Shown here: in pieces, positions 34,497 through 64,000 of the stretch
Position numbering within the stretch: the first letter of the stretch is position 1
Layout of the letters: each line of letters opens with the position of its first letter
Assembly (NCBI GenBank): GCA_949292635.1
Contig: CASEZY010000001.1
Span: 222,434-286,433 of the forward strand
From: an uncultured Methanomassiliicoccales archaeon
Lineage (GTDB): Archaea > Thermoplasmatota > Thermoplasmata > Methanomassiliicoccales > Methanomethylophilaceae
DNA: 64,000 nucleotides
Direction: 5' to 3'
Translations under genes and position numbers: made by a program
The notes under the pieces: model-generated
Told to the model about the DNA's origin: nothing
Database searches by the model: none
The model's input: the letters and a program-made list of their open reading frames with translations, nothing else

Positions 34497-34647
34497 GAAA
34501 AATGATCCTGTACTTAAACACTCACTTTTCTTGATAATTTTTTATCATGAAAATTCATCAAGAGTATTAACAGTTGGATCGTAAACTCTCATTTTCGGTC
34601 GATTCTAACGAAATCTGATCGATGGAATAACTCGAATCTTTCGCCCA

Positions 34648-36814: not shown

Positions 36815-36834
36815 TCGTCTAAAAATAATATAGT

Positions 36835-37227: not shown

Positions 37228-37237
37228 GGTAACCGAA

Positions 37238-38161: not shown

Positions 38162-38337
38162 AACCGTCCGGGCAACCCCCGGACATCCATCTTCTTTTCT
38201 TATTCGGTCCGAGGACCAGTGATTCGCGTACCAATGTGAAAAGAGCCAGACATCAGCGTCTCGGCATTCTTTGTTGAATCTGTGTGAGAATGTTAATGGG
38301 GTTTTTGCCGGGGTCGGGGGACCCCGTGTGTTTGTGA

Positions 38338-38640
38338 TCAGCTCTTCATCACTGCGAACAGGAAGATGCCGACCGCGACCAGAGCACCGATCAGGATACC
38401 GATCAGGTTGATGATGGCATCGTAGACGGCGTCCCAGGTGTGGACGTCGCAGAACGGCGTGATGTCACTGAATCCGGTCAGATACACCCAAACGATGCCC
38501 ACGACGAGACCGATGAGTGCAAGCACAAAGCCGACGGTCCTGCTCTTGCCGGTCCCAAAGTACGCGGTGAAAACACCGGCGAGGACCATGATCAGAGCGA
38601 AGGCCAGGACGGCGATGGTAATGAATGTCATCCAATCCAT
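38338..38640 (-). CDS. Small hypothetical membrane protein
   Basis: 100 aa, 3 TM helices. Confidence 0.5.
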   Translation of the reverse strand: MDWMTFITIAVLAFALIMVLAGVFTAYFGTGKSRTVGFVLALIGLVVGIVWVYLTGFSDITPFCDVHTWDAVYDAIINLIGILIGALVAVGIFLFAVMKS

Positions 38641-38763
38641 ACTATTACTCCTTCATGACTTTTTCCCGGCGAAGCCGGAACCTGTGGACACACGATAGGT
38701 TAAAGGACTTATATATTTCGCGTTCAAGGTTTATTATAGAACGCTCGCAATCCGTGTCATATC

Positions 38764-39786: not shown

Positions 39787-40887
39787 ATGGAATCCTTGAA
39801 GATCGTCGTTTCCAACCCGTTCTTCTACCCCTATCGGGGCGGCATAGAGCACAGGATGCACAAGCTCTGCAGGGTGCTGGCGGATAAGGGGCACGATGTG
39901 AGCGTACTCACCGCCAGGCTTCCTGACACCGAGGCCGTCGAAGAGACCGAGAGCGGCTACACCATCGTCAGGGTGCCCTGCCGTACGATCGACATCTACA
40001 ACCCCCCGTACATCATCTGCCGGGAGGTCGGCGAGACCCTGAAGAGATTGGATCCCGACATCGTGGACCACCAGTATCGCTGGGCGCCGTCCTTCGATAA
40101 GGACATCGCCAACCACGACGGAAAGAAGGTGTTCACCTACCACAACATGTGGGGGGAGGGCATCGGCATACAGCATTACATCTCCGAGGTCAACGACGGG
40201 CTGTACCGCAAGAAGCTGCTCCGCTACGACCACATCATCGCGATAACCGATGCGGTGAGGGACGACCTCATACGCAGGGGCATCAACGGGAGCACCATGA
40301 CCGTGATCGACAACTGCCTGGAGAAACTGCCGCCGGTGTCCGAGACCGAGGGGGACTTCATCCTCAACCTTGGCCGCATGGTGGCCACCAAGGGTCTGAG
40401 GTACCTGGTGGAGGCGATGCTGGATGTGGATTACAAACTGGTCATGTGCGGCAAGGGACCGGAGAGCCAGCACATCGAGAAGATGATCTCCAGATATGGT
40501 CTGCAGGACAGGATCGAACTCCGGGGCTGGGTCTCCGACGAGGAGAGATACAGACTGATGTCGGAATGCAAATTCTTCGTGATGCCCTCGATCCAGGAGG
40601 CTTACGGATTGGCTGCCACGGAAGTGCTGGCACATGGTAAGGCCCTGATATGCACGGACGTTGACGGACTGCCCGGGAACGTTAAGGACGCCGGACTGTA
40701 CGTCAAACCGAAGGACTCCAAGGGACTGGCGGAGGCCATCAACACCCTGCTCACCGACGACGCTCTGAGAAAGGAGTTGGCGGCCAACGCGGTGAAGGTC
40801 ACCAGGGCGTTCACCTGGGAGGGACAGGTGGATAAGACCGTGAAGGTCTACCGCTCGGTGCTGGACTCCTGCTCAACCGATATATAG
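39787..40887 (+). CDS. GT4 family glycosyltransferase (glycosyl transferase group 1)
   Basis: GT-B fold with conserved EAYGLAATE acceptor/donor motif; start overlaps the previous stop. Confidence 0.8.
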   Translation: MESLKIVVSNPFFYPYRGGIEHRMHKLCRVLADKGHDVSVLTARLPDTEAVEETESGYTIVRVPCRTIDIYNPPYIICREVGETLKRLDPDIVDHQYRWAPSFDKDIANHDGKKVFTYHNMWGEGIGIQHYISEVNDGLYRKKLLRYDHIIAITDAVRDDLIRRGINGSTMTVIDNCLEKLPPVSETEGDFILNLGRMVATKGLRYLVEAMLDVDYKLVMCGKGPESQHIEKMISRYGLQDRIELRGWVSDEERYRLMSECKFFVMPSIQEAYGLAATEVLAHGKALICTDVDGLPGNVKDAGLYVKPKDSKGLAEAINTLLTDDALRKELAANAVKVTRAFTWEGQVDKTVKVYRSVLDSCSTDI

Positions 40888-44420: not shown

Positions 44421-45476
44421 TCAGTTCTTTCCCAGCAGTGCGGACAGGCGCTCCTTGAGGGAGGATATGCTGCTGACGTCACGCGGATCCTTCGAATCCC
44501 TGAACGCCAATTCGAGAGATATGAAATCACCGAGAAGCGTGGCCCTGAACACCTTCTCGAAGATGTTCCTGCCTGTGATGTTGATCACGTAGGGGTTCAG
44601 ACCATTCTTCTTCAGGGCATTGAAGGTCTGCTTCTGCAGCTTCTCCATCATGCGGCTCATGTCGTCCTCGATCAGGAGGATAGGTTTCATCTTCACCTTG
44701 TTGAAGGAGGACATGCCGTCCACCCCCATGTGATTGGTGTCGGGGATGTGGCCGTCGAAGGCCACCAGCTTGGAGTTCTCGTTGAACTGCGCCCTCCATC
44801 TGCCTGCCACGGAGTAGAGGTATGACGAGGAATAGATCACGGGGACCTTCCTGCCGATGCGGCGGGCTGCCTTCACGGCATCGCTGTCCCTGCCTCCCTT
44901 GAGGGAGGCGACGTACTTCCTCAGGTCGGGGAGCACCTTGCGAATATCATCGGTGATGTCCGGACCGCCGATAGTGCGGAGGATGTTGAACGTATACCCG
45001 ACTGTGTACCCTACGGCGTTGCGGGGCTGTATGCCCTTCTTCACCGCAACCACGTGAATGTCCATCTCGACACAGCGGTCCATCAGGATCCCACCGGAGG
45101 TTATGGCGATGATCTGGCATCCGCGTATCACTGCCTGCTCGAAGACGGACAACGTCTCGCGGGTGTTGCCGGAGTAGCTACTCACCAGCACCAGCGAACG
45201 CTCGCTTGCCCATGCGGGAAGCTCGGGGAACCTGACCACCTTCAGCGGTCTGGATGACACGGGGTACAGGCAATCGGCCACGATGTCTCCGCCCACGGCG
45301 GAGCCTCCCATGCCGCAAACGAGGATCTCATCGAACTCCATCTTCGGGAGGTCCAGTTCCTGATTGATCGCACGGTCCAGGTCGTCCACGATCTGGGCGG
45401 TCTCCCCCCTCATGTTGAAGGGATCCTTGACATTCTCTGGTGTCCGGTCCGCTCCGTTCCCATCCTGCGCGGCCAT
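44421..45476 (-). CDS. Bifunctional phosphoglucose/phosphomannose isomerase (SIS-domain, archaeal PGI/PMI)
   Basis: Two SIS motifs (VCGMGGSAVGGD and SYSGNTRET); about 350 aa. Confidence 0.75.
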   Translation of the reverse strand: MAAQDGNGADRTPENVKDPFNMRGETAQIVDDLDRAINQELDLPKMEFDEILVCGMGGSAVGGDIVADCLYPVSSRPLKVVRFPELPAWASERSLVLVSSYSGNTRETLSVFEQAVIRGCQIIAITSGGILMDRCVEMDIHVVAVKKGIQPRNAVGYTVGYTFNILRTIGGPDITDDIRKVLPDLRKYVASLKGGRDSDAVKAARRIGRKVPVIYSSSYLYSVAGRWRAQFNENSKLVAFDGHIPDTNHMGVDGMSSFNKVKMKPILLIEDDMSRMMEKLQKQTFNALKKNGLNPYVINITGRNIFEKVFRATLLGDFISLELAFRDSKDPRDVSSISSLKERLSALLGKN

Positions 45477-48795: not shown

Positions 48796-50049
48796 ATGAT
48801 AGTTGACTTCACCATCGAGAACTTCGGTCCATTCAGAGACGAGACCGTACTGAGCATGCAGGCCACCGGTATGAAGGGGCTTCCTGGAAACATATCGGAA
48901 TCAAAATTCGCGAAAAACGGACTGCTCACATCAGCAATAGTGTTCGGAGCGAACGCTTCCGGAAAATCATACCTCACAAAGGCATTCTCAGCACTGAGGT
49001 ACATGGTGGCTGACACCCGTCACGACGAAACCCAATTCCCCTGGTATCAGCCATTCAGAATGTCCGAGAGGTGCCTGACGTTCCCAGTGCGCATTCGCAT
49101 AAAATTCGTTGAGAAGAGTGTACTGTATGACTATGCGATATCATATTCGGCAGACCGCATAGTCTACGAGCATCTCTACCACTACCCAAAAAACCGCCGT
49201 GCATGCGTATTCCTACGCACAGGCCCATTGACATTCGAACAGGCGAAAAAAAGCATTGCAGGCCTCACAAACGGATCGTCCGCATATCTTGCTGTGGCAT
49301 CCAAACTGAATGATGCCGTATGCAGCATCGTATCCAAATACATCCTTGAGAGAGTAATCTGTCTGGGTTCCAATCTCCTCCCATTGGTAGCTAGATCCTG
49401 CGTGTATCTATCGGAGAGCCAGGACAGGAAAAATATGGCAATGTCCGGACTGAAATACGCCGATTTCGGAATCACAGACTTCCAGTGGACAGAGGAGAGT
49501 GTCGATTCGTCCGAACTGGAGAGACTCATGCCTCCTGAGATGTACCGCGGCATATCAGATGCCGAGAGGCAGACCGTGAAGAGGATGGATATCCGTCTCA
49601 AGCATTCATTCAGAAGTTCGGATGACAGCGGACTTGAGGAGGTCCTCCCTCTGGAAATCGAGTCGTCAGGGACACAGAATATGTTCGGACTTCTAGGCCC
49701 TCTTACTGATGTGCTGAGCAACGGTGGCGTGCTGATCATCGATGAATTCGGCTCCACATTCCATCCCATGCTGTCAAGGTGGATTGTGTCGCAGTTCTCT
49801 GATCAAACAGGCGACATCAGAGCGCAACTCATAGCCAACTCCCATGACATGGAACTGATGGATACAAAGGAGGTACTCCGCAGGGATCAGATATGGTTCA
49901 CCGATAAGGACAGAGCCACTGGAGCCGCGGAGCTCTATGCCCTATCGGATTTCGACGGCATCAGGAAAAACGCAGATATCGCCAAAGCCTATCTGAATGG
50001 AAGGTATGATGCGATTCCGCACATCCTCTCGGGAAAAATGAAGCCATGA
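48796..50049 (+). CDS. AAA_21-family ATPase, AbiLi/RloA-like (defence ATPase)
   Basis: Walker A GANASGKSYLT, Walker B/D-loop VLIIDEFGSTFHP, C-terminal NSHD; 417 aa; visibly AT-richer than the flanks. Confidence 0.8.
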   Translation: MIVDFTIENFGPFRDETVLSMQATGMKGLPGNISESKFAKNGLLTSAIVFGANASGKSYLTKAFSALRYMVADTRHDETQFPWYQPFRMSERCLTFPVRIRIKFVEKSVLYDYAISYSADRIVYEHLYHYPKNRRACVFLRTGPLTFEQAKKSIAGLTNGSSAYLAVASKLNDAVCSIVSKYILERVICLGSNLLPLVARSCVYLSESQDRKNMAMSGLKYADFGITDFQWTEESVDSSELERLMPPEMYRGISDAERQTVKRMDIRLKHSFRSSDDSGLEEVLPLEIESSGTQNMFGLLGPLTDVLSNGGVLIIDEFGSTFHPMLSRWIVSQFSDQTGDIRAQLIANSHDMELMDTKEVLRRDQIWFTDKDRATGAAELYALSDFDGIRKNADIAKAYLNGRYDAIPHILSGKMKP

Positions 50050-50654
50050 TCGTCGAACCGAGAGACAGAAGACGGAAGAGAAGGAAACCCAAGAACACCG
50101 CGCTTATCGTCGGTGACGGGCGAACCGAACAGCTGTACTTCGAATCCCTCAACAAGAGGTATGGCAAAATCAGCATCATATCCCTCGGAACCAGGAAAAC
50201 CGGTATCGACCAAAGCATCAGGTTTGCAAGAAATGTTGCAAAACACAGACAGTTGAACACCAGTGATGGAGACCTAGTGGCAATCGTGATGGACATCGAC
50301 GGCAGATATTATGAGGAAGACATTGCCAGAATGTACAGGAAGTGCAAGGAGAAAGGATATTCTCTGTTCCTGTCTAACCCTTGCATCGAAATCTGGTTCC
50401 TGCTCCATTACGAAGGAGTTCGTTGCGAATGCACACAGCACGAAGCACTTCATATGCTTGAGGCCGCCAGCAAAATGAAGTATTCGAAATCGAAGTCTTT
50501 CGAATTCGATGATGTGATGCTGAGAGAGGCTATGAAACGTGCAGAAAAAATCCTTCCAACGGAAGAATGCTGCCCGTCTGAATGTCTGAAAAGGAACCCC
50601 AGCACGATGCTTCACGTGCTAGTAGGCAACCTGCTAAACCGCCCCGAGCAATGA
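50046..50654 (+). CDS. RloB-like protein (AbiLii-like, Toprim-related) partner of the AAA_21 ATPase
   Basis: RloB signature ALIVGDGRTEQLYFESL near the N-terminus; start overlaps the ATPase stop (ATGA); 202 aa. Confidence 0.75.
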   Translation: MIVEPRDRRRKRRKPKNTALIVGDGRTEQLYFESLNKRYGKISIISLGTRKTGIDQSIRFARNVAKHRQLNTSDGDLVAIVMDIDGRYYEEDIARMYRKCKEKGYSLFLSNPCIEIWFLLHYEGVRCECTQHEALHMLEAASKMKYSKSKSFEFDDVMLREAMKRAEKILPTEECCPSECLKRNPSTMLHVLVGNLLNRPEQ

Positions 50655-52556: not shown

Positions 52557-52910
52557 TCGATCACCTCGATGACGCAACATCGTGCGTTGATGGAAGGAGT
52601 AGCGTGGAGTGGGATAATTAAACTATGTAGAGGAACAGGGGAAGTTGACATGATTCCGAAGACGGTAGGATGGGTGCGGGGTTCGCCGTTGTGCGTAGCG
52701 GATCGGGATCGAATGGGTCCTGAGAACGGTGCACGAACAGGGATGTGCCTTAGATGCCGTCCGTGCACAAGTGTAGGTCTGGCTCATCAGCAATGGTGTC
52801 CCGACGACCGGAAACGGTGCGAAAAGTGTGTAATATAATGTAAGAAAATCATACATTAGATTACACATTTTTTACAAACATTATTATCCTCGGTTCACAT
52901 ACGCAGGATC

Positions 52911-54080
52911 ATGGCGGAGATCCTGCGGGATGAATACCTTCGGAGGCTGGAGTCCTTCCGCGGCCGGCCGGACCTGGTCAAGATACTCACAGGGGTCAGG
53001 AGGTCCGGCAAATCCACCATCCTCTCGCAGTTCCGCAGGAGGTTGGAGGCATCCGGAGAGGAGGTGGTCTCCGTGGACATGGAGGCGATGTCATTCGTGC
53101 TGACCACCGGCCGCGACCTCTACGATTACCTCAAGGAGAGGATGCCCTCCCCGGACTGCGCCGTACTGCTGGATGAGGTGCAGTACGTCGACGGATGGGA
53201 GAAGGTTGTCAACGCGCTGCGTGCGGGAGGAGCGGACGTATACGTCACCGGCTCCAATGCCAAGGTATTGTCATCGGAGTTCTCCACCATGCTTGCGGGA
53301 AGGTATGCGGAGATACACGTTCTGCCGTTCTCGTTCAGGGAGTTCCTGGAAAGGTACCCTCCTCACGGCGATGTTCGCACCTACGCCCGCTTCGAACAGT
53401 ACCTGAGATACGGCGGGCTGCCCATAATCGATCTTGACGATGACCCGGGGAAGAACAGGGTGATCATGAGCGGCGTCTACGATTCCGTCGTCGGAAGGGA
53501 CATAGCCTCCAGGGCGGGGGTCGAACTGCGCACCGTGGAACGTATGACCAGGTTCATGTACTCCAACGTGGGGAACATCACCACACTGTCTTCCATCACC
53601 TCCGGGTCCGGCATATCGGACAGGCGCACCGCGGACAGGTACCTGTCGGCGATCACGGACTCCTACGCATTCTATCGTGCCGATTCCTACGACCTGGTTG
53701 GGAAGCGCCCCATGAGGGTGAAGGCGAAGTACTATGCGGCTGACACCGGGCTGCGGAATGCGGCGCTGGCACACTCGGATGACGATGCATCCGGACTGCT
53801 GGAGAATGTGGTGTTCCTGGAGCTGAAGAGAAGGGGGTGCTCGGTGGCCGTGGGCTCGTACCGTGATTACGAGGTGGATTTCACCGTCAGGAAGGATGCG
53901 GGCGTGGGGCTGATCCAGGTGTGCAAAACGTTGGTCGAAGACAGCACGCTGGACAGGGCGCTCAGGCCGCTGAGGCTGGCGGAAGGGACGAATAAGATCG
54001 TTCTGACCATGGACAGGGATCTGCCTGATGATACGGATGAGGTGTCCTTCGTCAACCTTACGGATTGGCTGATGTCGTAG
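52911..54080 (+). CDS. AAA+ ATPase of the COG1373 type (ATPase plus DUF4143 C-terminal domain)
   Basis: Walker A TGVRRSGKST, Walker B VLLDEVQ, C-terminal DUF4143-like region; AT-rich promoter region upstream. Confidence 0.75.
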   Translation: MAEILRDEYLRRLESFRGRPDLVKILTGVRRSGKSTILSQFRRRLEASGEEVVSVDMEAMSFVLTTGRDLYDYLKERMPSPDCAVLLDEVQYVDGWEKVVNALRAGGADVYVTGSNAKVLSSEFSTMLAGRYAEIHVLPFSFREFLERYPPHGDVRTYARFEQYLRYGGLPIIDLDDDPGKNRVIMSGVYDSVVGRDIASRAGVELRTVERMTRFMYSNVGNITTLSSITSGSGISDRRTADRYLSAITDSYAFYRADSYDLVGKRPMRVKAKYYAADTGLRNAALAHSDDDASGLLENVVFLELKRRGCSVAVGSYRDYEVDFTVRKDAGVGLIQVCKTLVEDSTLDRALRPLRLAEGTNKIVLTMDRDLPDDTDEVSFVNLTDWLMS

Positions 54081-54483: not shown

Positions 54484-55494
54484 TCAGTTCGACAGCCTTC
54501 TCTTGAACTCGGTGATCGCAGGCACAGGGATGGGGTCGATGCCCTTCATCTCCGCCAGGCAGAGGGATACGTAATCGCCGAGGATGATGCCGTTCATTAT
54601 GCGCTCCACCATATTGTCGCCGGGGAGGTCCACGATGAGGAATCCGGAGCCGTTCTCCTCCAGGAGCACGGAGCACACGTCCATGTACTCCGATACCGGC
54701 TGTGCGTCCCCCGCGCGGAGGAGTATCGGTATCACACCGGGAGGGGATGAATTGCACCAGGCCTCCAGGCTGTTGTGGCAGAACTCCGGAAATACCCCGG
54801 CTGCGGCCACGGTCTTGGCGTTCTCGTTGATCTGCGCCTTCCAGCGGTCGGCCACCGAACGGATGGCCTCGGAGGAGTAGATGAACGGAATCTTGTCTCC
54901 GATGCGGGCGGCGATGTCCTTCGCGATGGGGTCCGAACCGTCGGAGATCCTGCTGGCATATTCTATGCCCTTCTCCACGGCGGTGTGGAATATCCCGTGG
55001 AAAGACAGGTCTGAATCGTTGGCCTTGAGGACGGCGACGATATTCATCACCACGAATCCTATGTCGCTGCGGGGCATGAAACCGCTGCTGTTGATGAATC
55101 TGGGAACGTCGTCCCTCTCGGCGATGTCCTTCAGCTTCCCGCCGGAGGTGATCACATATACCCCGCATCCTCTCGCGCGGGCGTCGCTGTAGAGGGAGAG
55201 CATCTCCCGGGTGTTGCCGGAGTAGCTTACCACCATCACCAGTGTGTCCTCGTCAGCCCATTGGGGGAGGACGCTGACCCTGAGCATGGTAATAGGTATC
55301 TTGGACATGCTGTCGCAGATGTCCGCGACCAGGGCGCCGGAGATGCCGGAGCCGCCCATCCCCGCGATGATGACGTGATTGTAATGCCTTGTCAGCGAGG
55401 CGGTGACGAATCCGTTGGCGTCGTTGAATCCCCTGATACGGGTGAGGTGCTCGAGAGGGCGCTCTAGACCAGGTCTGTCGCTGGGAGGGGACAT
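54484..55494 (-). CDS. Second bifunctional PGI/PMI-type sugar-phosphate isomerase (SIS), paralog of 44421..45476
   Basis: Same SIS motifs (IAGMGGSGISG, SYSGNTREM) and domain order as the first copy, with diverged sequence. Confidence 0.75.
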   Translation of the reverse strand: MSPPSDRPGLERPLEHLTRIRGFNDANGFVTASLTRHYNHVIIAGMGGSGISGALVADICDSMSKIPITMLRVSVLPQWADEDTLVMVVSYSGNTREMLSLYSDARARGCGVYVITSGGKLKDIAERDDVPRFINSSGFMPRSDIGFVVMNIVAVLKANDSDLSFHGIFHTAVEKGIEYASRISDGSDPIAKDIAARIGDKIPFIYSSEAIRSVADRWKAQINENAKTVAAAGVFPEFCHNSLEAWCNSSPPGVIPILLRAGDAQPVSEYMDVCSVLLEENGSGFLIVDLPGDNMVERIMNGIILGDYVSLCLAEMKGIDPIPVPAITEFKRRLSN

Positions 55495-55781
55495 TATGGT
55501 ATGCCAGAGGTCTGGGAATTTATAATGACTACGACATCCGGCATGTAGGTTGACAAAGTCTCCTCTCCAATCACATGAAGAATTTGATGTATTTTATGAT
55601 ACATTGATACATAATTGTTCTAGAACAGTCTTAGTTCACTGCGAATACCAAAGGCGTTTGCCCGAATCGCCATATGTTGAATATCGAATCACACAGGCAC
55701 ACCGAGTGACTAAAAACAAATAAGATATATATCGGTGGCATACAAACCGTGGCATTACCGTGACCGCGGTCATGGAATCAA

Positions 55782-56630
55782 GTGATTAACGTGACGTCGC
55801 CATCCGAGGATGTAAACTCCGAACCGTCTGCAAAGAGGCACACTGTTCCTACTTTACAGACAATTCGGGAAATATACCAGTACCGCAACATCCTGTGGGC
55901 ACTGGTACGCAGGAACATCGTCGGAAAATACAAGAGCTCGTTCCTGGGATTCGCCTGGCACTTCATCACCCCGCTGTGTCTGATCGTCCTGTATTATGTA
56001 GTGTTCACAGGAATCAGAGCAAACCCGATAGAATCCTACTGGATATACCTTGGCTGTGGAATCTTTCCTTTCAGTTTCATGAATTCTAATCTGATATCTG
56101 GATCTGGGTGCATCTTGAATAATGGAGGGTACATCAGTAAGATGTACTTCCCACGTGAGATTGTCCCGCTGGCACAGGTGACGAGTTCGTTCATCATCAT
56201 GCTGTTCGGATATGTAGTGATCATGATTCTGACAATAGCATCAGGATTCACTCTCAACCCGATTGCCTTGCTTACGATTCCAGTGATGTTTGTCCTGAAC
56301 TACATCTTCGTACTTGGTATGGTGTTGCTTATGTCCTCGATAACCGTCTACGTCAAGGATATCCAGCATCTTCTGACATCAATGTCCATGGTGTTCTTCT
56401 TCACCACACCCATGTTCTATCTCGCCAGCGAGACCACCGGAATTCTTAGCAAATTAATATGGGTGAATCCGTTCACCTACTTCGTAGAAGCATACCACAG
56501 CATCGTTTACTTCGGCACGATGCCAAGTATTGAGATCACAGTAGCCTGCACAATACTAGCGGCTGTGTTCCTGGTGGTCGGTGCCATCGTGTTCAAACGT
56601 CTGAAGAGAGGTTTCGTGGAGAGGTTGTGA
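55782..56630 (+). CDS. ABC-2 type polysaccharide export permease (Wzm/KpsM/TagG-like)
   Basis: Six TM helices and a YRNILWALVRRNIVGKYKSSFLGFAWHFITPL N-terminal signature; apparent GTG start; AT-rich. Confidence 0.8.
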   Translation: MINVTSPSEDVNSEPSAKRHTVPTLQTIREIYQYRNILWALVRRNIVGKYKSSFLGFAWHFITPLCLIVLYYVVFTGIRANPIESYWIYLGCGIFPFSFMNSNLISGSGCILNNGGYISKMYFPREIVPLAQVTSSFIIMLFGYVVIMILTIASGFTLNPIALLTIPVMFVLNYIFVLGMVLLMSSITVYVKDIQHLLTSMSMVFFFTTPMFYLASETTGILSKLIWVNPFTYFVEAYHSIVYFGTMPSIEITVACTILAAVFLVVGAIVFKRLKRGFVERL

Positions 56631-58645
56631 TGAAGCCGGACAGCGCGATCGAACTGCATGACGTCAGCAAATCCTTCAGGATACAGATCAGGAACTCAGA
56701 TTCGGAGAAGCTGTTCTTGCCGAAGGCACATTCCGTCAACAAGGTGCTGGATGACGTGAGTCTGACTGTGAAGAAGGGTACCGTGATGGGGATCCTTGGA
56801 CGCAACGGCAGCGGGAAGAGCACCATCCTGAAGATCATCTCCAGGATCATGGAGCCGGACTCCGGTACTGTGGAGATTGGCGGGAAGCTCGCCAGCATAT
56901 TGGAACTGGGGATGGGGTTCCACCCGGATATGTCCGGCAGGGAGAACATCTACATCAAAGGCGAAATGTACGGGTTCTCCCGGAAGCAGATCGAGGAGAG
57001 GATTGACCAGATCATCGAATACTCTGGGATAGACAGGTACATCGACAATCCTGTGAAGACGTACTCCTCAGGAATGGTGGGCAGACTTGCGTTCGCCATT
57101 ATGGTGAATGTGGATGCCGATGTGTTGCTGGTTGACGAGATCCTCAGCGTGGGAGATGCCGCGTTCTCCGCCAAGGCCGCCGAACATTTCAAGAAGATGG
57201 CCAAGAGCGGGAAGACCGTGCTGTTCGTATCTCACAACATAAACTTCCTAGAACAGATCTGCTCGCGTGCCATTTGGATTGAGAACGGGAAGATCGTCGA
57301 GGACGGCCCCGCCAAGAAGGTGTGCTCGATCTACCGCAACCGTGTTTCCGAATCCTTCGACATAATATCTGATCTGGCACATTCCGGAGTGGCCGATGCC
57401 CAATATAAACTTGCCATGATGTACCACAACGGCACGGATGTGCTTCCGGACGAGGGTCTTAGCGCTTTGTGGATGAAAAGGGCTGCAGAGCAGGGGAACA
57501 CACTGGCACAAGTGCGGTATGCAGACATGCTGATGCAAACTGGCTCATTTTCTGATGCTGAAGATGCCATCAACTTCTACAAATCTGCGGCTAATGCCGG
57601 GAATGAAGAGGCCCGGATGAAAATTTCATCATTGTCAAGGCACGAAGGTCTGAATCAAGACCTAGAGGCCGTGAAAGACATCTTCAGACAGTTGGCAGAG
57701 AGGGAAGATCCACTGGACATGTACCGCTATGCAGACCTTCTGCTGAAGACCGCTTGGAGTGATGAAGATCGTGTCAAGGCGTTTGAATGGTTCGTGAAGG
57801 CATCGGACGCTGGAAATGCGGATGCTATGCATTCAGCTGCTATAATGCTGCGTGACGGGAAGGGCGTGGCCAAGGATATCGAAAAATGTGTCTACTATCT
57901 TGAAATGGCTGCGAAACTGGGTCTTCAGAGATCGCAAGTATTGCTTGGTGATCTTTACTACGAAGGTAAAATCCTAGAAAAAGATGATACCAAGGCCATT
58001 CATTGGTATGAAACGGCTGCGCTTACAGGCAACCCTCGCGCACAATACATGACCGCCATCATGTATAGGGACGGACTTGGTACGGACCAGAATGTAACCA
58101 AAGCTGAAGAATGGTTCACGACTTATGTCCATTCATCAGCTACACAGCATATGATCTGGGCCGGAGACGCACTCAGATACGTAGATTTGGAGACTAAGTA
58201 TAGCCCTACTGACCTTTATAAAATGGCCTCAAAATACCATAACCTCTATGGAGACCTCATCCTGGGCAATACCTACCACGACGGAATATACGAAGTTCGT
58301 AACGATGCGACGTCACAAATGTATTATGAAAAATCTGGGAGTCTATGGGGTACGTGGAGGACATCACTGGCAAGGGTACTGATGATCACAGAGGGCCTTA
58401 ATAATATTGCTAGGATTATTGAACTTTACGAGCAGTCGGGTGCTTGTGGAGACGGAGAGGCACTATATCGCCTATCTTTAATCTACAACAATGGTTTGGG
58501 TGTTCCCAGGGACGAATTAAAGGCCAAGTCATTGGCATTAAAAGCTGCAAGATATGGAAACATTTCAGCGTGCAGAGCTATTGTTAAAAATCTTAAGAAC
58601 ATCGACATGCCTGACATTCTAAAATCGTCTAACAAAGATGAATGA
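56627..58645 (+). CDS. ABC exporter ATP-binding protein (Wzt/KpsT/TagH-like) fused to a C-terminal domain of about 11 Sel1 repeats
   Basis: GRNGSGKST, LSGGM-like signature, LLVDEIL Walker B in the first about 240 aa; then repeated Sel1 units (AQYKLAMMYHNG, GNTLAQVRYADML, GNADAMHSAAIMLRDGKGVAKD, GNPRAQYMTAIMYRDGLGTDQN ...). Confidence 0.85.
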   Translation: MMKPDSAIELHDVSKSFRIQIRNSDSEKLFLPKAHSVNKVLDDVSLTVKKGTVMGILGRNGSGKSTILKIISRIMEPDSGTVEIGGKLASILELGMGFHPDMSGRENIYIKGEMYGFSRKQIEERIDQIIEYSGIDRYIDNPVKTYSSGMVGRLAFAIMVNVDADVLLVDEILSVGDAAFSAKAAEHFKKMAKSGKTVLFVSHNINFLEQICSRAIWIENGKIVEDGPAKKVCSIYRNRVSESFDIISDLAHSGVADAQYKLAMMYHNGTDVLPDEGLSALWMKRAAEQGNTLAQVRYADMLMQTGSFSDAEDAINFYKSAANAGNEEARMKISSLSRHEGLNQDLEAVKDIFRQLAEREDPLDMYRYADLLLKTAWSDEDRVKAFEWFVKASDAGNADAMHSAAIMLRDGKGVAKDIEKCVYYLEMAAKLGLQRSQVLLGDLYYEGKILEKDDTKAIHWYETAALTGNPRAQYMTAIMYRDGLGTDQNVTKAEEWFTTYVHSSATQHMIWAGDALRYVDLETKYSPTDLYKMASKYHNLYGDLILGNTYHDGIYEVRNDATSQMYYEKSGSLWGTWRTSLARVLMITEGLNNIARIIELYEQSGACGDGEALYRLSLIYNNGLGVPRDELKAKSLALKAARYGNISACRAIVKNLKNIDMPDILKSSNKDE

Positions 58646-58648
58646 AAA

Positions 58649-59458
58649 ATGCCGGACCAGGGGGAAAAGAGTATGGATAAGATGATATTGATTGCCGGAC
58701 CGTGTGTCATTGAATCCCAGCAATGTCTAGAAACGGTCGCCCCTCACATCGCAGACATCTGCGATGATCTAAACATCGACTATTTCTTTAAATCATCATT
58801 CGACAAAGCAAATCGCACATCAGTAAGTTCTTTTCGCGGACCCGGTATGGAAAAGGGCATCGAAATGCTTCAAAAAATCAAAGATGAATTCGGTGTGAAA
58901 ATAACCACAGATATACACGAGCCGAACCAGGCGGCCCCTGTAGCAAAGGTTGCAGATATGATTCAAATCCCAGCATTCCTCTGCAGGCAAACCGACCTTC
59001 TAATTGCTGCTGGCCAAACTAATCGCATCATCAATGTGAAAAAAGGCCAATTCATGGCACCGTGGGATATGAAAAACGTGATTGGTAAACTCGAATCCAC
59101 TGGAAACAAAAAAATTATGCTCTGTGAGCGTGGCACATCATTCGGGTATAATCGCCTTGTAGTAGATATGGCTGGGATATATGAGATGAAAAAACTAGGA
59201 TATCCCATAGTTTTCGATGCCACCCACTCTGTTCAGCAGCCTGGCGGAGGAAACGGGTTCACCACAGGTAACAGAGAATACATACCCACCCTCACCAGAG
59301 CTGCCATCGCAGCGGGAGCAGAACACTTATTCATGGAAGTTCACCCTGATCCTTCCAAAGCATTGTCTGATGGACCCAATTCTCTTGAACTCTCCGAGGT
59401 CCGCAACCTGTTAGAAAAAGTCGTAGAAATCAGAAATGTTATTGGTGACTCAGCATGA
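58649..59458 (+). CDS. kdsA: 3-deoxy-8-phosphooctulonate (Kdo-8-P) synthase
   Basis: LIAGPCVIES N-terminus, KSSFDKANRTS, and the C-terminal-region motif EVHPDP; about 265 aa DAHP/KDO8P synthase family. Confidence 0.85.
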   Translation: MPDQGEKSMDKMILIAGPCVIESQQCLETVAPHIADICDDLNIDYFFKSSFDKANRTSVSSFRGPGMEKGIEMLQKIKDEFGVKITTDIHEPNQAAPVAKVADMIQIPAFLCRQTDLLIAAGQTNRIINVKKGQFMAPWDMKNVIGKLESTGNKKIMLCERGTSFGYNRLVVDMAGIYEMKKLGYPIVFDATHSVQQPGGGNGFTTGNREYIPTLTRAAIAAGAEHLFMEVHPDPSKALSDGPNSLELSEVRNLLEKVVEIRNVIGDSA

Positions 59459-60426
59459 ACGACAACTATCTGGACTCCGCTCAATATGTTTTTGATAAGG
59501 AGATAGAGGGCTTACTTTCGCTCAAAAACAACCTCGGGGAGTCATTCAACAGGTTCGTAGACGAAATTGATTCTTGCAAAGGCCACATCATATTCATGGG
59601 TGTAGGAAAAAGCGGCCATATCTGCCAGAAAATAGTTGCTACAATGCAAAGCCTAGGCATAAAAACATTCTTCCTGCATCCGACGGAAAGTTTACACGGG
59701 GACCTCGGATCAATTTCCAAAGAGGACATTGTTATCGGCGTGAGTAATAGCGGCGAAACCTCTGAGCTCCTTGGAACAATACCTTCCATCAGGATAATAG
59801 GTGCCAGACTTTTTTGCATAGTTGGGAGGGAAAACTGCACACTCAGTAGAAGTTCTGAGATAACTCTGCTGATGCCCAACATGAAGGAAGTGTTTCTAGA
59901 CAACATGGTCCCAACTACATCCACTACTGCAACACTGGTATTGGGTGATGCTTTAGCAGTATGCATAGCTGAAAAACGCGGGTTTACTAAAAGTGAATTT
60001 GGAATCTATCATCCCAACGGGGCATTGGGGAAAAGACTTACGATTAAAGTCTCAGACATCATGTCTAAGGACATCCAAAACACAACGGTTCCATGCGGTT
60101 CAACCATAAGAGAAGCTGTTGTGACCATGTGTGGATCGTCCATGGGCGGAATATGCGTCGTCAAAGACGGTCAACTTCAAGGTGTATTCACAGACGGGGA
60201 TCTGCGCAGACATCTCAATAAGTACGGAGATGAGGCCCTCGAATATGTTATTGACGATGTGATGACCAAAAAATGTACGACCTTGGATTATGACACGCTG
60301 GCATACGATGCGATAGAACAGGTTGTTACCAAAAGTGCCGTATCGTTCTATCCCGTTCTAAAAGATGGGGAATATGCCGGCGCCATTAGAACGCTGGACT
60401 TTGTCCATTCAGGACTGATGAAATGA
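59455..60426 (+). CDS. kdsD: Arabinose-5-phosphate isomerase (SIS plus tandem CBS)
   Basis: SIS motif FMGVGKSGHI...GVSNSGET plus C-terminal CBS pair; 4-nt overlap with kdsA. Confidence 0.85.
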   Translation: MNDNYLDSAQYVFDKEIEGLLSLKNNLGESFNRFVDEIDSCKGHIIFMGVGKSGHICQKIVATMQSLGIKTFFLHPTESLHGDLGSISKEDIVIGVSNSGETSELLGTIPSIRIIGARLFCIVGRENCTLSRSSEITLLMPNMKEVFLDNMVPTTSTTATLVLGDALAVCIAEKRGFTKSEFGIYHPNGALGKRLTIKVSDIMSKDIQNTTVPCGSTIREAVVTMCGSSMGGICVVKDGQLQGVFTDGDLRRHLNKYGDEALEYVIDDVMTKKCTTLDYDTLAYDAIEQVVTKSAVSFYPVLKDGEYAGAIRTLDFVHSGLMK

Positions 60427-60896
60427 TCAAAAAACTGATTATGGATGTAGACGGCACAATGACTGATGGCAGAATCAACATAGCCCCATCAGGAGAGTTG
60501 TTCAAATCGTTCGATGTCAAGGACGGTTATGGAATAAAGATGCTCATTAACGCTGGAGTAGAACCAATAATAATCACGGGTAGACGCTCAGATATCGTAT
60601 CTCTGCGTGCGAAAGAACTGGAGATCTCAAGTGTATATCAAGGGATATCGGATAAAGCCGAATGCCTACAAAACATAATGGAAAAAGAAGCCTTATCTCC
60701 GGATACTGTGGCATACATAGGGGATGATATAAACGATTTGGAAGCTATGAAACTGGTAAGACACACATTTGCACCGGCGGACGCTTCAGAGGATGTGCTG
60801 AACTATGTCAATCAACGCCTAAACAGCACCGGTGGACACGGGGCGATAAGAGAGTGTGCAGAAGTGATTCTAAAAAAGAATCAGGAGACGGTATGA
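60423..60896 (+). CDS. kdsC: Kdo-8-phosphate phosphatase (HAD family)
   Basis: HAD motif I MDVDGTMTDG and GDDINDL; about 157 aa, typical KdsC size. Confidence 0.8.
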   Translation: MIKKLIMDVDGTMTDGRINIAPSGELFKSFDVKDGYGIKMLINAGVEPIIITGRRSDIVSLRAKELEISSVYQGISDKAECLQNIMEKEALSPDTVAYIGDDINDLEAMKLVRHTFAPADASEDVLNYVNQRLNSTGGHGAIRECAEVILKKNQETV

Positions 60897-61672
60897 TGAA
60901 GATAATTGGTGTGATTCCTTCAAGATACGCATCGTCCAGATTTCCTGGCAAACCGCTGTCAGACATTTGTGGAAAACCTATGGTTTGGTGGGTCTACAAC
61001 CAGGCAAAATGTGTGAAAGAGCTGGACGAAGTGATTGTTGCTACAGAGGACGAGCGTATCACGGACGTTTGTGAAAAGTATGGGATTCCATCAATTATGA
61101 CGTCTGATAAACACAAAAATGGCACAGAGCGCCTTGCCGAAGTAGCGGCCAAAATAGAGGCGGATCTGTACGTCACGATACAAGGCGATGAACCTCTCAC
61201 ACAACCTAGCGACATCTCCAAATTGATTCGTTTCGCTTTATCAACAGATGCGCCCTGTGCAACTATGAAAACCGCATACAGGAATCCTGTGGATGTCATC
61301 AACTCAACAACGCCAAAAGTTGTCTCTGATTTGGATGACAATATTTTATTATTTACGAGATCGCCAGTGCCATATCCTAAAGCAGATCTGGATTACATCA
61401 TCTGGAAACCTATTGGAATATACATTTTCAAAAGAGATATTTTGCTGAAGTACCCTCAATTAAGGATGGGGCCGCTGGAAAGAGCTGAAGAAATTGAACT
61501 TCTTCGCTTCATTGAAAATGGATACAAGATAAAGGTGATTGAAACCGAGTCAAGTACAATTGCAGTAGATACTGAGAAAGATCTCAAAAAAGTAATTAAT
61601 ATGGCCAAAAACCTCTGTGATGATGACCCAGAATCCTATTTCATACATAACTTTAACAGAGGTGTCTGCTAA
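60893..61672 (+). CDS. kdsB: 3-deoxy-manno-octulosonate cytidylyltransferase (CMP-Kdo synthetase)
   Basis: Start MMKIIGVIPSRYASSRFPGKPL, QGDEPL motif; overlaps the kdsC stop. Confidence 0.85.
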   Translation: MMKIIGVIPSRYASSRFPGKPLSDICGKPMVWWVYNQAKCVKELDEVIVATEDERITDVCEKYGIPSIMTSDKHKNGTERLAEVAAKIEADLYVTIQGDEPLTQPSDISKLIRFALSTDAPCATMKTAYRNPVDVINSTTPKVVSDLDDNILLFTRSPVPYPKADLDYIIWKPIGIYIFKRDILLKYPQLRMGPLERAEEIELLRFIENGYKIKVIETESSTIAVDTEKDLKKVINMAKNLCDDDPESYFIHNFNRGVC

Positions 61673-61977
61673 GATAATTGAGGACACTATTTGATAATTG
61701 CCGGACCCCGCTACACGGGACTCCACAATTATCCCCACTTTTTTCTCGAGAACACTGATCCACACAGTCGGAACCTCCGAGAACTAGCCGTAGTAGCCCA
61801 AATTGCCTCATTTGTAGGGTTGAAATTGGACATGGCGACCTTCACACTCATCCTTTTTACCTGAAACTTCGGATTGTGTAGGTTGCAAAGCCTGATTTCC
61901 GTTTTTGATTTATATATTGTATTTAAAGAGTTTAAAAAGCACAATCCTTTAATATGTAACCGTGCATATAGGTTACA

Positions 61978-63657
61978 ATGGGAAGCATATACTATGTCGA
62001 GCGGAACGGGCAGAAGTATGCCTACGAGAGCGTATCCAGACGTGTGCCGGGGAAGAAGAATCCGGTCACCGAAAAGACGTATCTCGGCAAGGTGGATCCA
62101 GAGACCGGCAAGATAATTCCCAAGGAATCCAAGAAGGTCCCGACAGAGGAACATGTCCGCAAGTATGGATGTGTGACGGTCCTCGACAGGATCCAGAACG
62201 ATCTGGGCATATTGGACGACCTCCGCGAATGCTTCCCGGATGTCGCGGAGAACATCATGGCCACGGCAATGGCCGTGGCCATCGACCCCACACCGTTCGA
62301 CGATGTCCATTTCACCGTGGATGAGAACGGATTGAAGGACAGGCTGCGGCTCCGCGGCAGCCTGTCCCCTCCCGTGCTGTCCGACCTGACCAAGGACCTC
62401 GGCCAGAGGTTCTCGGCAATGGACACCTTCTTCACACGTCGTGCCGAGAGGACGATGAAGGGTGGCACCTACGCGATCGACATAACATCCAATTCCACCT
62501 ATTCGGATATGGGCGGATATGCGGAATGGGGCTACAACCGCGACGGCGAGAACCTTCCCCAGACCGGGATCGTCCTCGTAACCGACGGTTCGGGCATACC
62601 GATCGCGTTCCAGATGCTGCCTGGATCGATCGCGGACTCGGCATCGTTGCAGAGTACTGTGGAATGGATGGGATCCATAGGCGTCGCAGGCAGACTGGTG
62701 GCGGACCGCGGGTTCGAGAACGCGGGGAACATGGCCGCGCTGCTGGACCGCGGGATACCATTCACCATCCCGTCCAACGCACGTGAGATGCCGATAAAGA
62801 AGCTCATGACGAAGGCGAAGAGGATCATGAAGGACTCGGACTCCATCCGCAGGCACGAAGGGAGGACGTACAGGGTGGCCGAGTTCGAGGTCGGCATCGC
62901 CGACCTCGAGAGCGGCCACCGCTACGTCACGAGATTGGACGCCAACGAGAAGGGTGCAGGATCCGAGAACGAGCTGTTCGAAACATCCCGCAAGATCAAG
63001 GCGTTCGTCGTCCATGATTCCCGCAAGGCGGCCGATGACATGGATTCCCTGATGTCGGCCATCGAAAGGGCCGAACTCGAACTGGAGGGCACGGTCAGGA
63101 AGGATCCGGCCAAGGAATTCAACAAACTGCCGGCGTTCGTCCGTTCCCATCTGGATTGGACGGTGGATGAGGATGGTGCGATGCACATCGAGAGGCTCCA
63201 GAACTCGTTCTCGTTCGATTCGAACAGGGCAGGGATGTTCATCATGTTCGCCTCGATGGACACGGACTGGGAGACGATGATGTCGTCATACGACACAAGG
63301 GACTGGGTCGAGAAGGCCTTCGACGTCTACAAGACGGACACGGACGGGCCCCGGTCTAGGACCGGGGACCCCGACCGTGCCCGTGCGAGGTTCTTCATCA
63401 GGATGCTGGCACTGATCATGCGCATCACGATTCAGAACAGACTGAGGGATCACGAGAGGGAGATACTGGCGTCGAAGAGGGAGAGGGACGACGTCTGCGG
63501 ACTGTCTGTCAACTCCGTGATGAGGACCCTCGGGACGCTGATGGTGATCGTGAGTCCGGGCTATGTGAGGCTCACGCCACCCTCCAAGACGGTGATGGAG
63601 ATCTTCTCCCTGTTCGGGCTCGAAGAGCCCGTGGCGGGGAGGATCGCCTTACCATGA
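61978..63657 (+). mobile_element. IS1634-family transposase gene (DDE)
   Basis: N-terminal YYVERNGQKYAYESVSRR motif and VADRGFENAGN DDE region typical of IS1634/ISH-like transposases; 559 aa; native-like GC. Terminal inverted repeats not confidently identified. Confidence 0.75.
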
Positions 63658-63798
63658 TGTAGCCATACAAATCTGAAGATTCAGGTTCCAAATATTGATA
63701 TTGGCTTATGCGTCAAACTCAAATTACAACATATTGATGAATCGGGGAATCATTGAACAAATGCTTGTAGTTAGGCGGTTTGTAGGCACCCCCCGCCA

Positions 63799-64000
63799 TT
63801 AGTCCAGTATTACCAACGCCTCATTCAAACTTTCCGGCGTATCGATTTCCCAAAGAATAAGAATCAATTCAGTCCTTGCCCACGAAAGGTTTTGATTGAC
63901 CGCCTTGCGCATCCATTCGGCAGCCTTATTCAGATCCCTCTCAACACCTTTGCCGTCACGGTATGCACGACCCAGTCTGGCCTGCATCTCCCGATCATTT
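63799..64000 (-). CDS. Sel1-repeat protein, C-terminal part (gene continues beyond window end)
   Basis: Sel1 consensus LGRAYRDGKGVERDLNKAAEWMRKA; the reading frame is open to the window edge. Confidence 0.55.
   Translation of the reverse strand, partial: NDREMQARLGRAYRDGKGVERDLNKAAEWMRKAVNQNLSWARTELILILWEIDTPESLNEALVILD

Follow-up and report, generated by a model that had tools for sequence, protein, structure and literature searches.

The 64,000-nucleotide (nt) stretch of DNA analyzed here (the window) contains a block at 55495-61977 in which the genes of an ATP-binding cassette (ABC) exporter are followed by genes predicted to encode the four enzymes that lead to CMP-Kdo, the activated form of 3-deoxy-D-manno-octulosonic acid (Kdo). 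The glycan genes themselves span 55782-61672. Kdo is taken to mark Gram-negative envelopes, the capsules of bacteria, and the pectin of plants, and to our knowledge it is otherwise known from bacteria and plants. The features of the block and its borders, the last of which involves an insertion sequence (IS), are as follows.

54484-55494, minus strand: PGI/PMI, a bifunctional phosphoglucose/phosphomannose isomerase (NF006423, 230 bits, and Pfam bact-PGI_C)
55495-55781, no strand: AT-rich divergent spacer between PGI and Wzm (GC 0.41), with a TATA-like AAGATATATATC at 55722-55733
55782-56630, plus strand: Wzm-like ABC-2 permease (Pfam ABC2_membrane, 7.5e-16)
56627-57391, plus strand: nucleotide-binding domain (NBD) of Wzt, residues 1 to about 255 (Pfam ABC_tran)
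57392-58645, plus strand: C-terminal Sel1-repeat domain of Wzt, residues about 256-672 (Pfam Sel1, 9.6e-46)
58649 (or 58673)-59458, plus strand: KdsA, Kdo-8-phosphate synthase of the metal-dependent class (NCBIfam equivalog cut-offs passed)
59455-60426, plus strand: KdsD/KpsF-type arabinose-5-phosphate isomerase with SIS and two CBS domains (TIGR00393)
60423-60896, plus strand: KdsC, Kdo-8-phosphate phosphatase (HAD-IIIA, YrbI family; TIGR01670)
60893-61672, plus strand: KdsB, CMP-Kdo synthetase (NF009905, NF003952, TIGR00466)
61647-63798, plus strand: IS1634-family element with IS debris (transposase gene 61978-63657; ends imprecise)
63799-64000, minus strand: 3' end of a Sel1-repeat protein gene, which stops directly beside the IS and is cut by the end of the window

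The glycan genes are tightly packed, as the three kds junctions (KdsA/D, D/C, and C/B) are all 4-nt ATGA overlaps, the Wzm and Wzt genes overlap at GTGATG, and the gap from Wzt to KdsA is 3-27 nt depending on where KdsA starts. The start at 58673 is probably to be favored over 58649; an exact protein look-up matched the 261-aa form of KdsA, while the 269-aa form and the transposase gave no match. The original prediction, made from the sequence alone, had recognized the four-gene Kdo pathway in the order kdsA-kdsD-kdsC-kdsB with its 4-nt overlaps, as well as the ABC-2 permease/ATPase pair upstream of it (Wzm and Wzt, 55782-58645), and both stand. It made no mention of the large Sel1 domain that forms the C-terminal part of the 672-aa Wzt (entire gene 56627-58645). 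The spacer at 55495-55781 is presumed to contain the promoter of the operon and is 89-96% identical at the nt level in sister loci. On its other side, the PGI gene, whose composition is native, forms the conserved left-hand anchor of a variable glycan locus: in four related loci from other assemblies (L001, L003, L091, and L093) it is 94.5-97.9% identical in nt sequence and in each case immediately precedes Wzm.

The gene content identifies the host as an archaeon, as originally predicted. The window encodes aIF5B, aIF2-gamma, PurP, an archaeal-type ProRS, and PurL, and genes for L24e, S28e, L7Ae, and NDK are found just upstream of the locus on syntenic contigs. Judging from the transporter homologs described below, the host probably belongs to the Methanomethylophilaceae (Methanomassiliicoccales). 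No rRNA was found in the window, which has a single tRNA, and an Rfam search of the related loci gave no match. The use of TAG as a stop codon (6 of 54 genes) is uninformative on the host.

The four Kds proteins were compared with NCBIfam models and with solved enzymes. KdsA reaches 409 bits with NF003543 (cut-off 242) and 394 bits with TIGR01362 (cut-off 314), while the models of 3-deoxy-D-arabino-heptulosonate 7-phosphate (DAHP) synthases give 117-150 bits, all under their cut-offs. It aligns over its whole length with solved Kdo-8-phosphate synthases (307-319 bits), and its GPCVIES, DATHSVQ, FMEVHP, and ALSDGP motifs align with GPCAIES, DATHSVQ, FMETHP, and ALSDAS of the Aquifex aeolicus enzyme (1FWN), in which we take the ligands of the metal-dependent class to be Cys, His, Glu, and Asp. 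KdsD reaches 246 bits with the KpsF/GutQ model TIGR00393 (cut-off 204) and has a Pfam SIS domain and two CBS stretches, but it remains under the enterobacterial equivalog cut-offs for both KdsD (252 versus 505 bits) and GutQ (222 versus 481 bits). KdsC, with a DVDGT motif in its translation, scores 156 bits against TIGR01670 (cut-off 107) and is likewise under the cut-offs for the Kdn-9-phosphate phosphatase (117 versus 180 bits) and the enterobacterial NF007019 (152 versus 208 bits). KdsB passes NF009905 (266 bits, cut-off 255), NF003952 (263 bits, cut-off 193), and TIGR00466 (163 bits, cut-off 155). Its best solved relative is 1GQ9 (176 bits, with residues 3-242 aligned to 2-242), presumably the capsule-specific CMP-Kdo synthetase of Escherichia coli, while the other deposited KdsB structures score 111-150 bits. 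The original prediction had allowed that these proteins might be DAHP-synthase or other SIS/HAD paralogs not specific for Kdo. Because the family cut-offs are exceeded by all four, and because KdsA and KdsB align with solved enzymes, that reading is closed, and there is a strong sequence-based case that the four genes encode bona fide CMP-Kdo pathway enzymes by family. A pathway to the nonulosonate Kdn was also considered and rejected, since the synthase is a Kdo-8-phosphate synthase rather than a NeuB-like enzyme and an arabinose-5-phosphate isomerase is present. The dN/dS values of the kds genes relative to locus L001 are 0.03-0.16 (0.03 for KdsA and 0.07 for KdsC), and the genes are under purifying selection.

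The block also differs from its surroundings in composition, and it does so in two steps with the transporter genes intermediate. The GC content is 0.594 over positions 1-55494 and 0.459 over 55495-61672, and within the latter it is 0.485 in the Wzm-Wzt genes and 0.439 in the kds genes. The GC content at third codon positions (GC3) follows the same pattern, with 0.84 ± 0.04 in 24 native genes, 0.59-0.62 in Wzm/Wzt (Wzm 0.62), and 0.42-0.48 in kds. The distance in codon usage from the native genes corresponds to z values of 5.4-6.9 for the kds genes and 2.1-3.6 for Wzm/Wzt. The IS is compositionally native, with a GC of 0.59, a GC3 of 0.81, and a z value of −0.7 for the transposase gene. Hence, while the AT-richness that had originally been estimated (about 40-45% GC against about 60%) and the strongly non-native codon usage of the kds genes are both upheld by the profiles that had been called for, the actual range is 0.41-0.50 and two-stepped rather than uniform.

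Comparison with related loci shows that the genes downstream of the exporter are exchanged. Three groups of relatives share the flank (NDK, L24e, S28e, L7Ae, an AbiL-like pair, a Band-7 protein, and PGI) at 85-95% nt identity and have Wzm and Wzt in the same place, and the genes after Wzt are as follows.

L001 to L006 and the window: the kdsADCB cassette
L091 and L092: a GT2 gene, a UDP-sugar dehydrogenase, a 583-aa Sel1 protein, and a double GT2
L093 and L094: a 2-hydroxyacid dehydrogenase, two IspD-like cytidylyltransferases, and an epimerase

The NBD of Wzt is 95% identical in nt sequence to that of the window in the kds alleles and 93-95% in the other alleles, whereas the Sel1 domain is 97% identical in the kds alleles and 79-81% identical, over about 70% of its length, in the others, which at the protein level is 98% versus 66-72%. 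The Sel1 domain of Wzt therefore changes with the cassette. The fixed part of the locus is PGI/PMI, Wzm, and the ATPase domain of Wzt, and the exchangeable part begins inside wzt at the Sel1 domain, after which come sugar-nucleotide and glycosyltransferase genes that are particular to each allele. Relative to L001, the window has dS values of 0.05 for KdsA and PGI, 0.13 for Wzt, 0.42 for KdsB, and 0.96 for Wzm, and such unevenness along one locus is what marks a recombination mosaic. Within the conserved part Wzm has diverged the most and is equally far from L001, L091, and L093 (nt identity of 81% to the kds alleles and 82-83% to the others), and from this comparison the wzm allele of the window appears to have a different history from its neighbors.

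The exporter can be assigned as an ABC-2 glycan exporter at the family level only, as all equivalog cut-offs are unmet. The best NCBIfam neighbors of Wzm are the galactan Wzm/RfbD and KpsM models, both far under their cut-offs (24 bits for KpsM, cut-off 300), and those of the Wzt NBD are TagH and Wzt/RfbE (178-195 bits, cut-offs 320-538). Glycan genes follow Wzm/Wzt in every allele examined. The Wzt_C jelly-roll carbohydrate-binding module was not found in Wzt by Pfam, residues about 256-672 being Sel1 repeats (153 bits), which take up the position of that module in bacterial Wzt proteins. Thousands of proteins that share the ABC_tran plus Sel1 architecture were recovered with the 672-aa Wzt as query, and among the best 120 homologs all six that carry an organism name are from Methanomassiliicoccales (Methanomethylophilus alvi, Ca. 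Methanomethylophilus sp., Methanomethylophilaceae archaeon, Ca. Methanarcanum hacksteinii, and Thermoplasmata archaeon). In M. alvi, Wzm and Wzt-Sel1 are followed by GT2, DUF4422-GT8, LicD, IspD-like, dTDP-rhamnose (Rml), and GLF genes. Because the named homologs are all Methanomassiliicoccales and the same chromosomal site is kept in relatives that lack kds, the Wzt-Sel1 exporter is native to the Methanomethylophilaceae/Methanomassiliicoccales rather than imported together with the kds genes. In this respect the original prediction, which had included Wzm/Wzt in a block imported from a bacterium, does not hold. Sel1 proteins have been reported as enriched in host-associated Methanomassiliicoccales (PMC4153887, PMC7883539), and the passages of these two papers that were searched make no mention of a Sel1 fusion to a glycan exporter.

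We propose that what is seen here is an allele of a surface-glycan locus that is hypervariable and depends on an ABC transporter, in a gut archaeon, that its kds cassette is ultimately of bacterial origin and now circulates among related archaea, and that the product would be a Kdo-containing glycan, built with CMP-Kdo as the donor and exported by Wzm/Wzt. We regard this proposal, drawn from the gene content and comparisons above, as probable, although by no means assured. Bacterial O-antigen and capsule loci are organized alike, in that their export genes are fixed, their AT-rich synthesis cassettes are exchanged, and the C-terminal part of Wzt is serotype-specific. As the original prediction had suggested, the most sensible use of the kds genes would be a surface glycan that leaves the cell through the adjacent ABC system.

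A glycan of this type would require a Kdo transferase, and neither GT30, GT99, GT107, nor sialyltransferase-like genes were found in the window by Pfam scans of the larger open reading frames (ORFs) and by tblastn, in agreement with the original prediction, which had seen no WaaA-, KpsS-, or KpsC-like gene. In the same Pfam scans GT2 and GT4 were the sole glycosyltransferases of the window. KpsC/KpsS (GT107) and KpsD/KpsE were found neither in the window ORFs scanned nor in the Pfam lists of L001, L007, and L009. In L001, however, kdsB is followed on the opposite strand by the gene for a 1174-aa protein (13076-16600, minus strand), two GT2 genes, and a gene for UDP-galactopyranose mutase. The 1174-aa protein begins with a domain that contains an SGGIDS motif, continues with Sel1 repeats, and closes with a C-terminal domain of about 480 residues. 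Searched as a whole against Pfam and PDB sequences, it gave Sel1/TPR matches only, and a PDB profile search of the C-terminal domain gave none; tblastn of the window with this protein found Sel1 repeats only. A word-indexed search with the C-terminal domain gave one homolog, through which an exhaustive HMMER search recovered about 20 relatives. An alignment of 18 sequences has invariant Y108, D112, Q165, D260, and K272-x-H274-P275, and AlphaFold2 run on this alignment gave a GT-B model with a pLDDT of 89.4 and a pTM of 0.86; the model of the homolog from its single sequence had a pLDDT of 38.7, so that the usable model is the one from the alignment. Three members of the family weakly match the Pfam polysialyltransferase model over the region of the HP motif, and the histidine of this motif is a hallmark of transferases that use CMP-activated ulosonic acids (PMC9587256). 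Because of this histidine, and because CMP-Kdo is the only CMP-sugar pathway in the examined part of the L001 locus, we consider the C-terminal domain a candidate Kdo transferase that is sialyltransferase-like and distinct from GT30, GT99, and GT107, with a modest structural margin over a generic GT-B fold in the model.

Two further features of these L001 genes can be noted. Residues 1-390 of the 1174-aa protein, which have no Pfam match, contain a GASGGIDS motif that recalls the PP-loop ATP pyrophosphatases, and the UDP-galactopyranose mutase gene (19048-20172, minus strand) is split into two ORFs of 226 and 132 aa, which represents either a frameshift/pseudogene or an assembly error.

The candidate transferase is missing from the window, where the IS stands in its position at the right-hand border of the block. 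The transposase gene scores 190 bits against NF033559 (cut-off 100), and terminal inverted repeats and direct repeats of the IS1634 element were sought and none were found. Homology to L001 breaks at 61646, at about residue 252 and within the last approximately 8 codons of kdsB, and beyond this point the tail of kdsB is replaced by other sequence. The original prediction had the block end at the IS1634 transposase gene; an IS does follow, but it is not the natural end of the locus. Rather than being the vehicle of an island, the IS has native composition and truncates the locus, and the comparison with L001 indicates that an IS1634-associated rearrangement has removed the adjacent transferase region in this strain. 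The Sel1 protein gene across the IS (63799-64000, minus strand) is 43% identical by tblastn to the Sel1 part of the 1174-aa protein, its end occupies the position expected of the transferase domain, and it may be the truncated partner of the missing domain. The only contig recovered across the IS ends in Sel1 repeats just after it. In the interval between kdsB and the transposase gene, 79 nt (61761-61838) are 75% similar to the terminal part of another DDE transposase gene, found in L096, which points to remnants of an IS that had occupied this junction earlier.

These observations raise the possibility that the cassette is a stranded relic in the window's strain, in which, with the Kdo transferase and the glycan-synthesis genes lost, CMP-Kdo would serve no purpose or no longer be produced, and the genes would be decaying. 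The loss of homology at 61646, the absence of the 1174-aa protein, GT2 genes, and GLF of L001 from the window, the abrupt end of the Sel1 gene, and the IS debris after kdsB would all be expected of such a relic. It is nevertheless an unlikely account, although one of some weight. All six ORFs are intact, and the altered tail of kdsB lies past the conserved fold that aligns with solved enzymes. The identical kdsB/IS junction is present in L005 and L010, that is, in three assemblies from different samples, which indicates a persisting strain. Moreover, the window ends 340 bp past the IS, and the transferase genes may lie further on or elsewhere. The low dN/dS of the kds genes also argues against decay, with the proviso that it is averaged over the whole divergence from L001.

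The descent of the kds genes is best considered together with a second alternative, namely the recent acquisition of the AT-rich block in its entirety (Wzm, Wzt, and kdsADCB) from a bacterium as one island. AT-richness and non-native codon usage would fit such an event, the best 80 matches to KdsA among species-representative genomes are all bacterial, bacterial loci with kds and Wzm/Wzt exist in Exiguobacterium and Paenibacillus, and there is a published analog in the Kdo island of Bacillus coahuilensis (PMC4744853). This alternative is already contradicted for the transporter by the sequence comparisons, as the named Wzt-Sel1 homologs are all from Methanomassiliicoccales and the pair occupies the same site in kds-free relatives. 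In addition, the change in composition has two steps (a GC3 of about 0.6 in the transporter versus 0.42-0.48 in kds). Nor is AT-richness particular to this block, as the variable parts of all close alleles have a GC of 0.38-0.46, the L007 and L009 loci 0.32-0.41 (0.47-0.56 in their flanks), and the glycan block of M. alvi 0.29-0.43 (0.50-0.60 in its flanks). Since every allele is AT-rich whatever its content, low GC by itself neither dates a transfer nor identifies its source.

The relatives of the kds genes themselves also speak against a single recent import. Among 5.8 billion proteins searched, the nearest relatives of KdsA outside the same species group are 67-76% identical, and the two nearest that could be placed in context, P0007 (in L007 and also in L098) and P0009 (in L009), are both linked to Wzm/Wzt-Sel1. 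The gene order differs among the window, L007, and L009. P0007 adjoins a Bcs3-like phosphatase/ribofuranosyltransferase and an archaeal-type AspRS in L007, while P0009 adjoins two DUF4422-GT8 enzymes and PGI in L009. From the Wzt-Sel1 architecture and the archaeal-type AspRS and PGI, both contigs are probably archaeal. The window proteins are 67-73% (KdsA), 54-56% (KdsD), 51-56% (KdsC), and 35-64% (KdsB) identical to those of L007 and L009, whereas identity to the 80 bacterial representatives does not exceed 42% for KdsD and 65% for KdsA, with KdsD of the nearest gut Firmicutes at about 38%. In a neighbor-joining tree of KdsD the sequences of the window/L001, L007, and L009 are monophyletic, and their sister group is formed by metagenome-assembled genomes (MAGs) of a Bacilli from yak rumen and an Oscillospiraceae from termite gut; the KdsA tree has the same five-member clade. 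The Bacilli MAG has kdsA, kdsD, DUF386, kdsC, GT4, GLF, and epimerase genes beside three serine recombinases. A search of metagenomes with a KdsD alignment added only one further L007-like contig and one fragment, and a search with KdsD alone gave no match.

In our reading the kds cassette is thus likely of bacterial, gut Firmicutes-like descent, would have been present in this archaeal family for some time, and is now passed among its members at the glycan locus. The immediate source was more likely another archaeon of the same family, with the bacterial origin further back, and we consider a single recently acquired island very unlikely. The horizontal acquisition from a bacterium that had been predicted is accordingly retained in part. 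The kds codon usage is non-native, and the closest relatives outside Wzt-Sel1-linked loci are from gut Firmicutes MAGs, but the nearest relatives of all are Wzt-Sel1-linked, on probably archaeal contigs, and group with the window in the KdsD tree. Placement in a long-standing archaeal clade with native codon usage had been named as evidence against acquisition, and the genes show one without the other, with best matches in an apparently archaeal clade and codon usage that is not native.

Two observations concern the other kds loci. The 585-aa protein at 5313-7070 (minus strand) of L007 resembles the phosphatase/ribofuranosyltransferase part of Haemophilus influenzae Bcs3 (1.5e-14), which, by analogy with the ribose-Kdo capsules known among E. 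coli K antigens, hints at a polymer of ribose and Kdo. A DUF386 (YhcH/YjgK/YiaL) gene lies beside kds in L009 (7729-8160) and in the locus of the Bacilli MAG (L011, 11750-12187), though not in the window, and may be an accessory of the ancestral kds cassette.

A third alternative is that CMP-Kdo decorates an N-glycan or a membrane lipid by way of an unlinked enzyme and that its adjacency to the exporter reflects no more than the clustering of glycan genes. Archaeal N-glycans carry other ulosonic acids, the window has no transferase of its own, and a native cluster of GT2, NTP-transferase, and GT4 genes lies at 36-41 kb. However, linkage of kds to Wzm/Wzt-Sel1 recurs with three distinct gene orders (the window, L007, and L009), which argues for functional coupling, the Sel1 allele of Wzt travels with kds, and the overlapping frames of Wzm and Wzt are separated by just a short gap from kds. 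We therefore give this alternative little credence. Finally, although the compositional shift is sharp and the source genomes are metagenome-assembled, the idea that a bacterial fragment was joined to an archaeal contig by assembly or binning is dismissed, as the PGI-Wzm-Wzt-kds arrangement is found in seven independent assemblies from NCBI, ENA, and Logan (NCBI GCA_949291775.1, four from ENA, and three from Logan), and the contigs that hold the junction together with archaeal ribosomal protein genes include one of 742 kb (that of the NCBI assembly) and one of 627 kb.

Several points weigh against our proposal of an exchangeable, Kdo-exporting glycan locus. The window itself is without a Kdo transferase, and the IS rearrangement may have disabled the Kdo system in this strain. 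The co-variation of the Sel1 domain with the cassette is based on three allele types and could merely mark a recombination breakpoint within wzt. As regards descent, the 80 KdsA representatives listed, all bacterial, are uninformative on whether archaea lack the gene, the trees are neighbor-joining trees of few sequences without support values, and L009 and, to a lesser degree, L007 are archaeal by inference, with L009 also having a bacterial-type MetK. We also found no published report of Kdo or of kds genes in Methanomassiliicoccales or other archaea in a literature that was incompletely covered.

If the proposed locus is functional, its homologies strongly indicate a route from ribulose-5-phosphate and phosphoenolpyruvate to CMP-Kdo through the four Kds enzymes. 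KdsD would convert ribulose-5-phosphate to arabinose-5-phosphate, KdsA would condense the latter with phosphoenolpyruvate to Kdo-8-phosphate, KdsC would dephosphorylate this to Kdo, and KdsB would activate Kdo with CTP to give CMP-Kdo. At the cytoplasmic face of the membrane the sialyltransferase-like C-terminal domain of the Sel1 protein could then add Kdo to a lipid-linked glycan, and Wzm/Wzt would export the finished glycan to the cell surface. The Sel1 domain of Wzt may confer allele specificity, either by recognizing the end of the glycan or by docking the Sel1-bearing synthesis enzymes. M. alvi has a single membrane and neither a cell wall nor an S-layer (PMC10673518), and by analogy the host cell probably lacks a wall, and the product would remain at the single membrane in the form of a lipoglycan or glycocalyx. 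We infer the acceptor and lipid carrier, the role of Sel1, and the presence of Kdo on the cell.

The closest functional parallel is the ABC-dependent O-antigen of Raoultella terrigena and Klebsiella pneumoniae O12, in which WbbB and Wzm/Wzt produce and export a chain with a terminal beta-Kdo cap, and where the carbohydrate-binding module of Wzt binds this cap at the glycan terminus (PMC9587256). The O12-type system and the proposed locus have in common the completion of the glycan in the cytoplasm, CMP-Kdo as the donor, export by an ABC-2 Wzm/Wzt pair, a serotype-specific C-terminal extension of the ATPase, and multidomain synthesis enzymes. They differ in that the host here is an archaeon with one membrane and therefore lacks a lipid A-core and WaaL, Wzt is extended by a Sel1 alpha-solenoid instead of a carbohydrate-binding module, and the candidate transferase, which lies outside the window, is like the inverting sialyltransferases (GT80/GT38-like) and not GT99. 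The E. coli group 2 capsule locus likewise places a dedicated arabinose-5-phosphate isomerase and CMP-Kdo synthetase beside an ABC-2 exporter, and the closest solved entry to the window KdsB is 1GQ9, but the archaeal locus has no KpsC/KpsS (GT107) or KpsD/KpsE and hence is not a member of this class, and it has its own kdsA and kdsC whereas E. coli borrows them from lipopolysaccharide (LPS) synthesis. A Kdo cassette in a host without LPS has a precedent in the GIm2d island of Bacillus coahuilensis m2-6, which is AT-rich and strain-specific with kdsA/B/C/D, glycosyltransferases, and insertion sequences, although that host is a bacterial monoderm, kpsC is included, there is no Wzt-Sel1, and a multi-allelic locus was not shown (PMC4744853).

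Two other comparisons concern the exporter. The M. alvi locus (L095, GCA_964306565.1) has the same architecture (Wzm 49% and Wzt NBD 63% identical), with AT-rich glycan genes downstream and an IS at its end, but it is at a different chromosomal site and has no kds genes. The TagGH exporter of wall teichoic acid and the mycobacterial galactan Wzm-Wzt are the best neighbors of the ATPase and export lipid-linked polymers across a single membrane, but their equivalog cut-offs are not reached and those proteins are without a C-terminal Sel1 domain. What is new here is the domain of the host, the Sel1-fused exporter, and probably the transferase family, while the logic of a cassette-type glycan locus is familiar.

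An intact CMP-Kdo pathway that is maintained by selection in several lineages of gut methanogens would extend Kdo to the Archaea, and some of what is counted as "LPS-biosynthesis" genes in gut metagenomes could be archaeal. Gut methanogens without a wall would also appear to vary their surface by exchanging cassettes at one fixed site, as in bacterial O-antigen and capsule loci, with a bearing on phage host range, immune recognition, and efforts to target rumen methanogens with vaccines or antibodies. Fusion of Wzt to Sel1 would provide a testable function for part of the Sel1 expansion, so far linked to host association in the Methanomassiliicoccales only by correlation (PMC4153887, PMC7883539). 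More speculatively, host-associated Methanomethylophilaceae might have serotype-like interchangeable glycans in which Sel1, present in both Wzt and the synthesis enzymes, replaces the carbohydrate-binding module as the device for specificity and coupling, with one allele placing Kdo on an archaeal surface by means of an undescribed family of sialyltransferase-like transferases. We offer this larger picture tentatively and regard it as doubtful in its entirety, but, if true, it would represent the first Kdo glycoconjugate in Archaea and a handle on antigenic and phage-receptor variation, and possibly on the mimicry of bacterial surfaces, in gut methanogens.

Several other features of the window lie to the left of the glycan locus. 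An AbiLi/AbiLii-like pair at 48796-50654 (plus strand; PADLOC 3e-80 and 5e-22, Pfam AAA_21 and RloB) is a second compositionally foreign islet, with a GC3 of 0.59 against 0.84 in native genes, and is nevertheless kept at 88-92% nt identity in L001, L091, and L093. Between the Band-7 and PGI genes is a strain-variable slot, which in the window and in L093 holds a DUF4143/AAA_14 ATPase gene (52911-54080, plus strand; PADLOC PDC-S01, 1e-111, at 52810-54007), in L003, L091, and L092 a pair encoding a 163/167-aa protein and a 670-aa AAA_21 protein, and in L001 neither. A second PGI/PMI-like gene (bact-PGI_C; 44421-45476, minus strand) lies 9 kb from the PGI that anchors the locus. A second glycosylation cluster of native composition, at 36056-40887, includes GT2 (36056-36814, minus strand), a class IV aminotransferase, a sugar-phosphate nucleotidyltransferase (38764-39786), and GT4 (39787-40887). 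Further to the left, at 33318-35349 (minus strand; GC 0.53), a SoFic-like Fic protein (PADLOC 6e-36) is encoded beside a short AbiLi-like ATPase fragment, and this stretch may be a degraded defense island.

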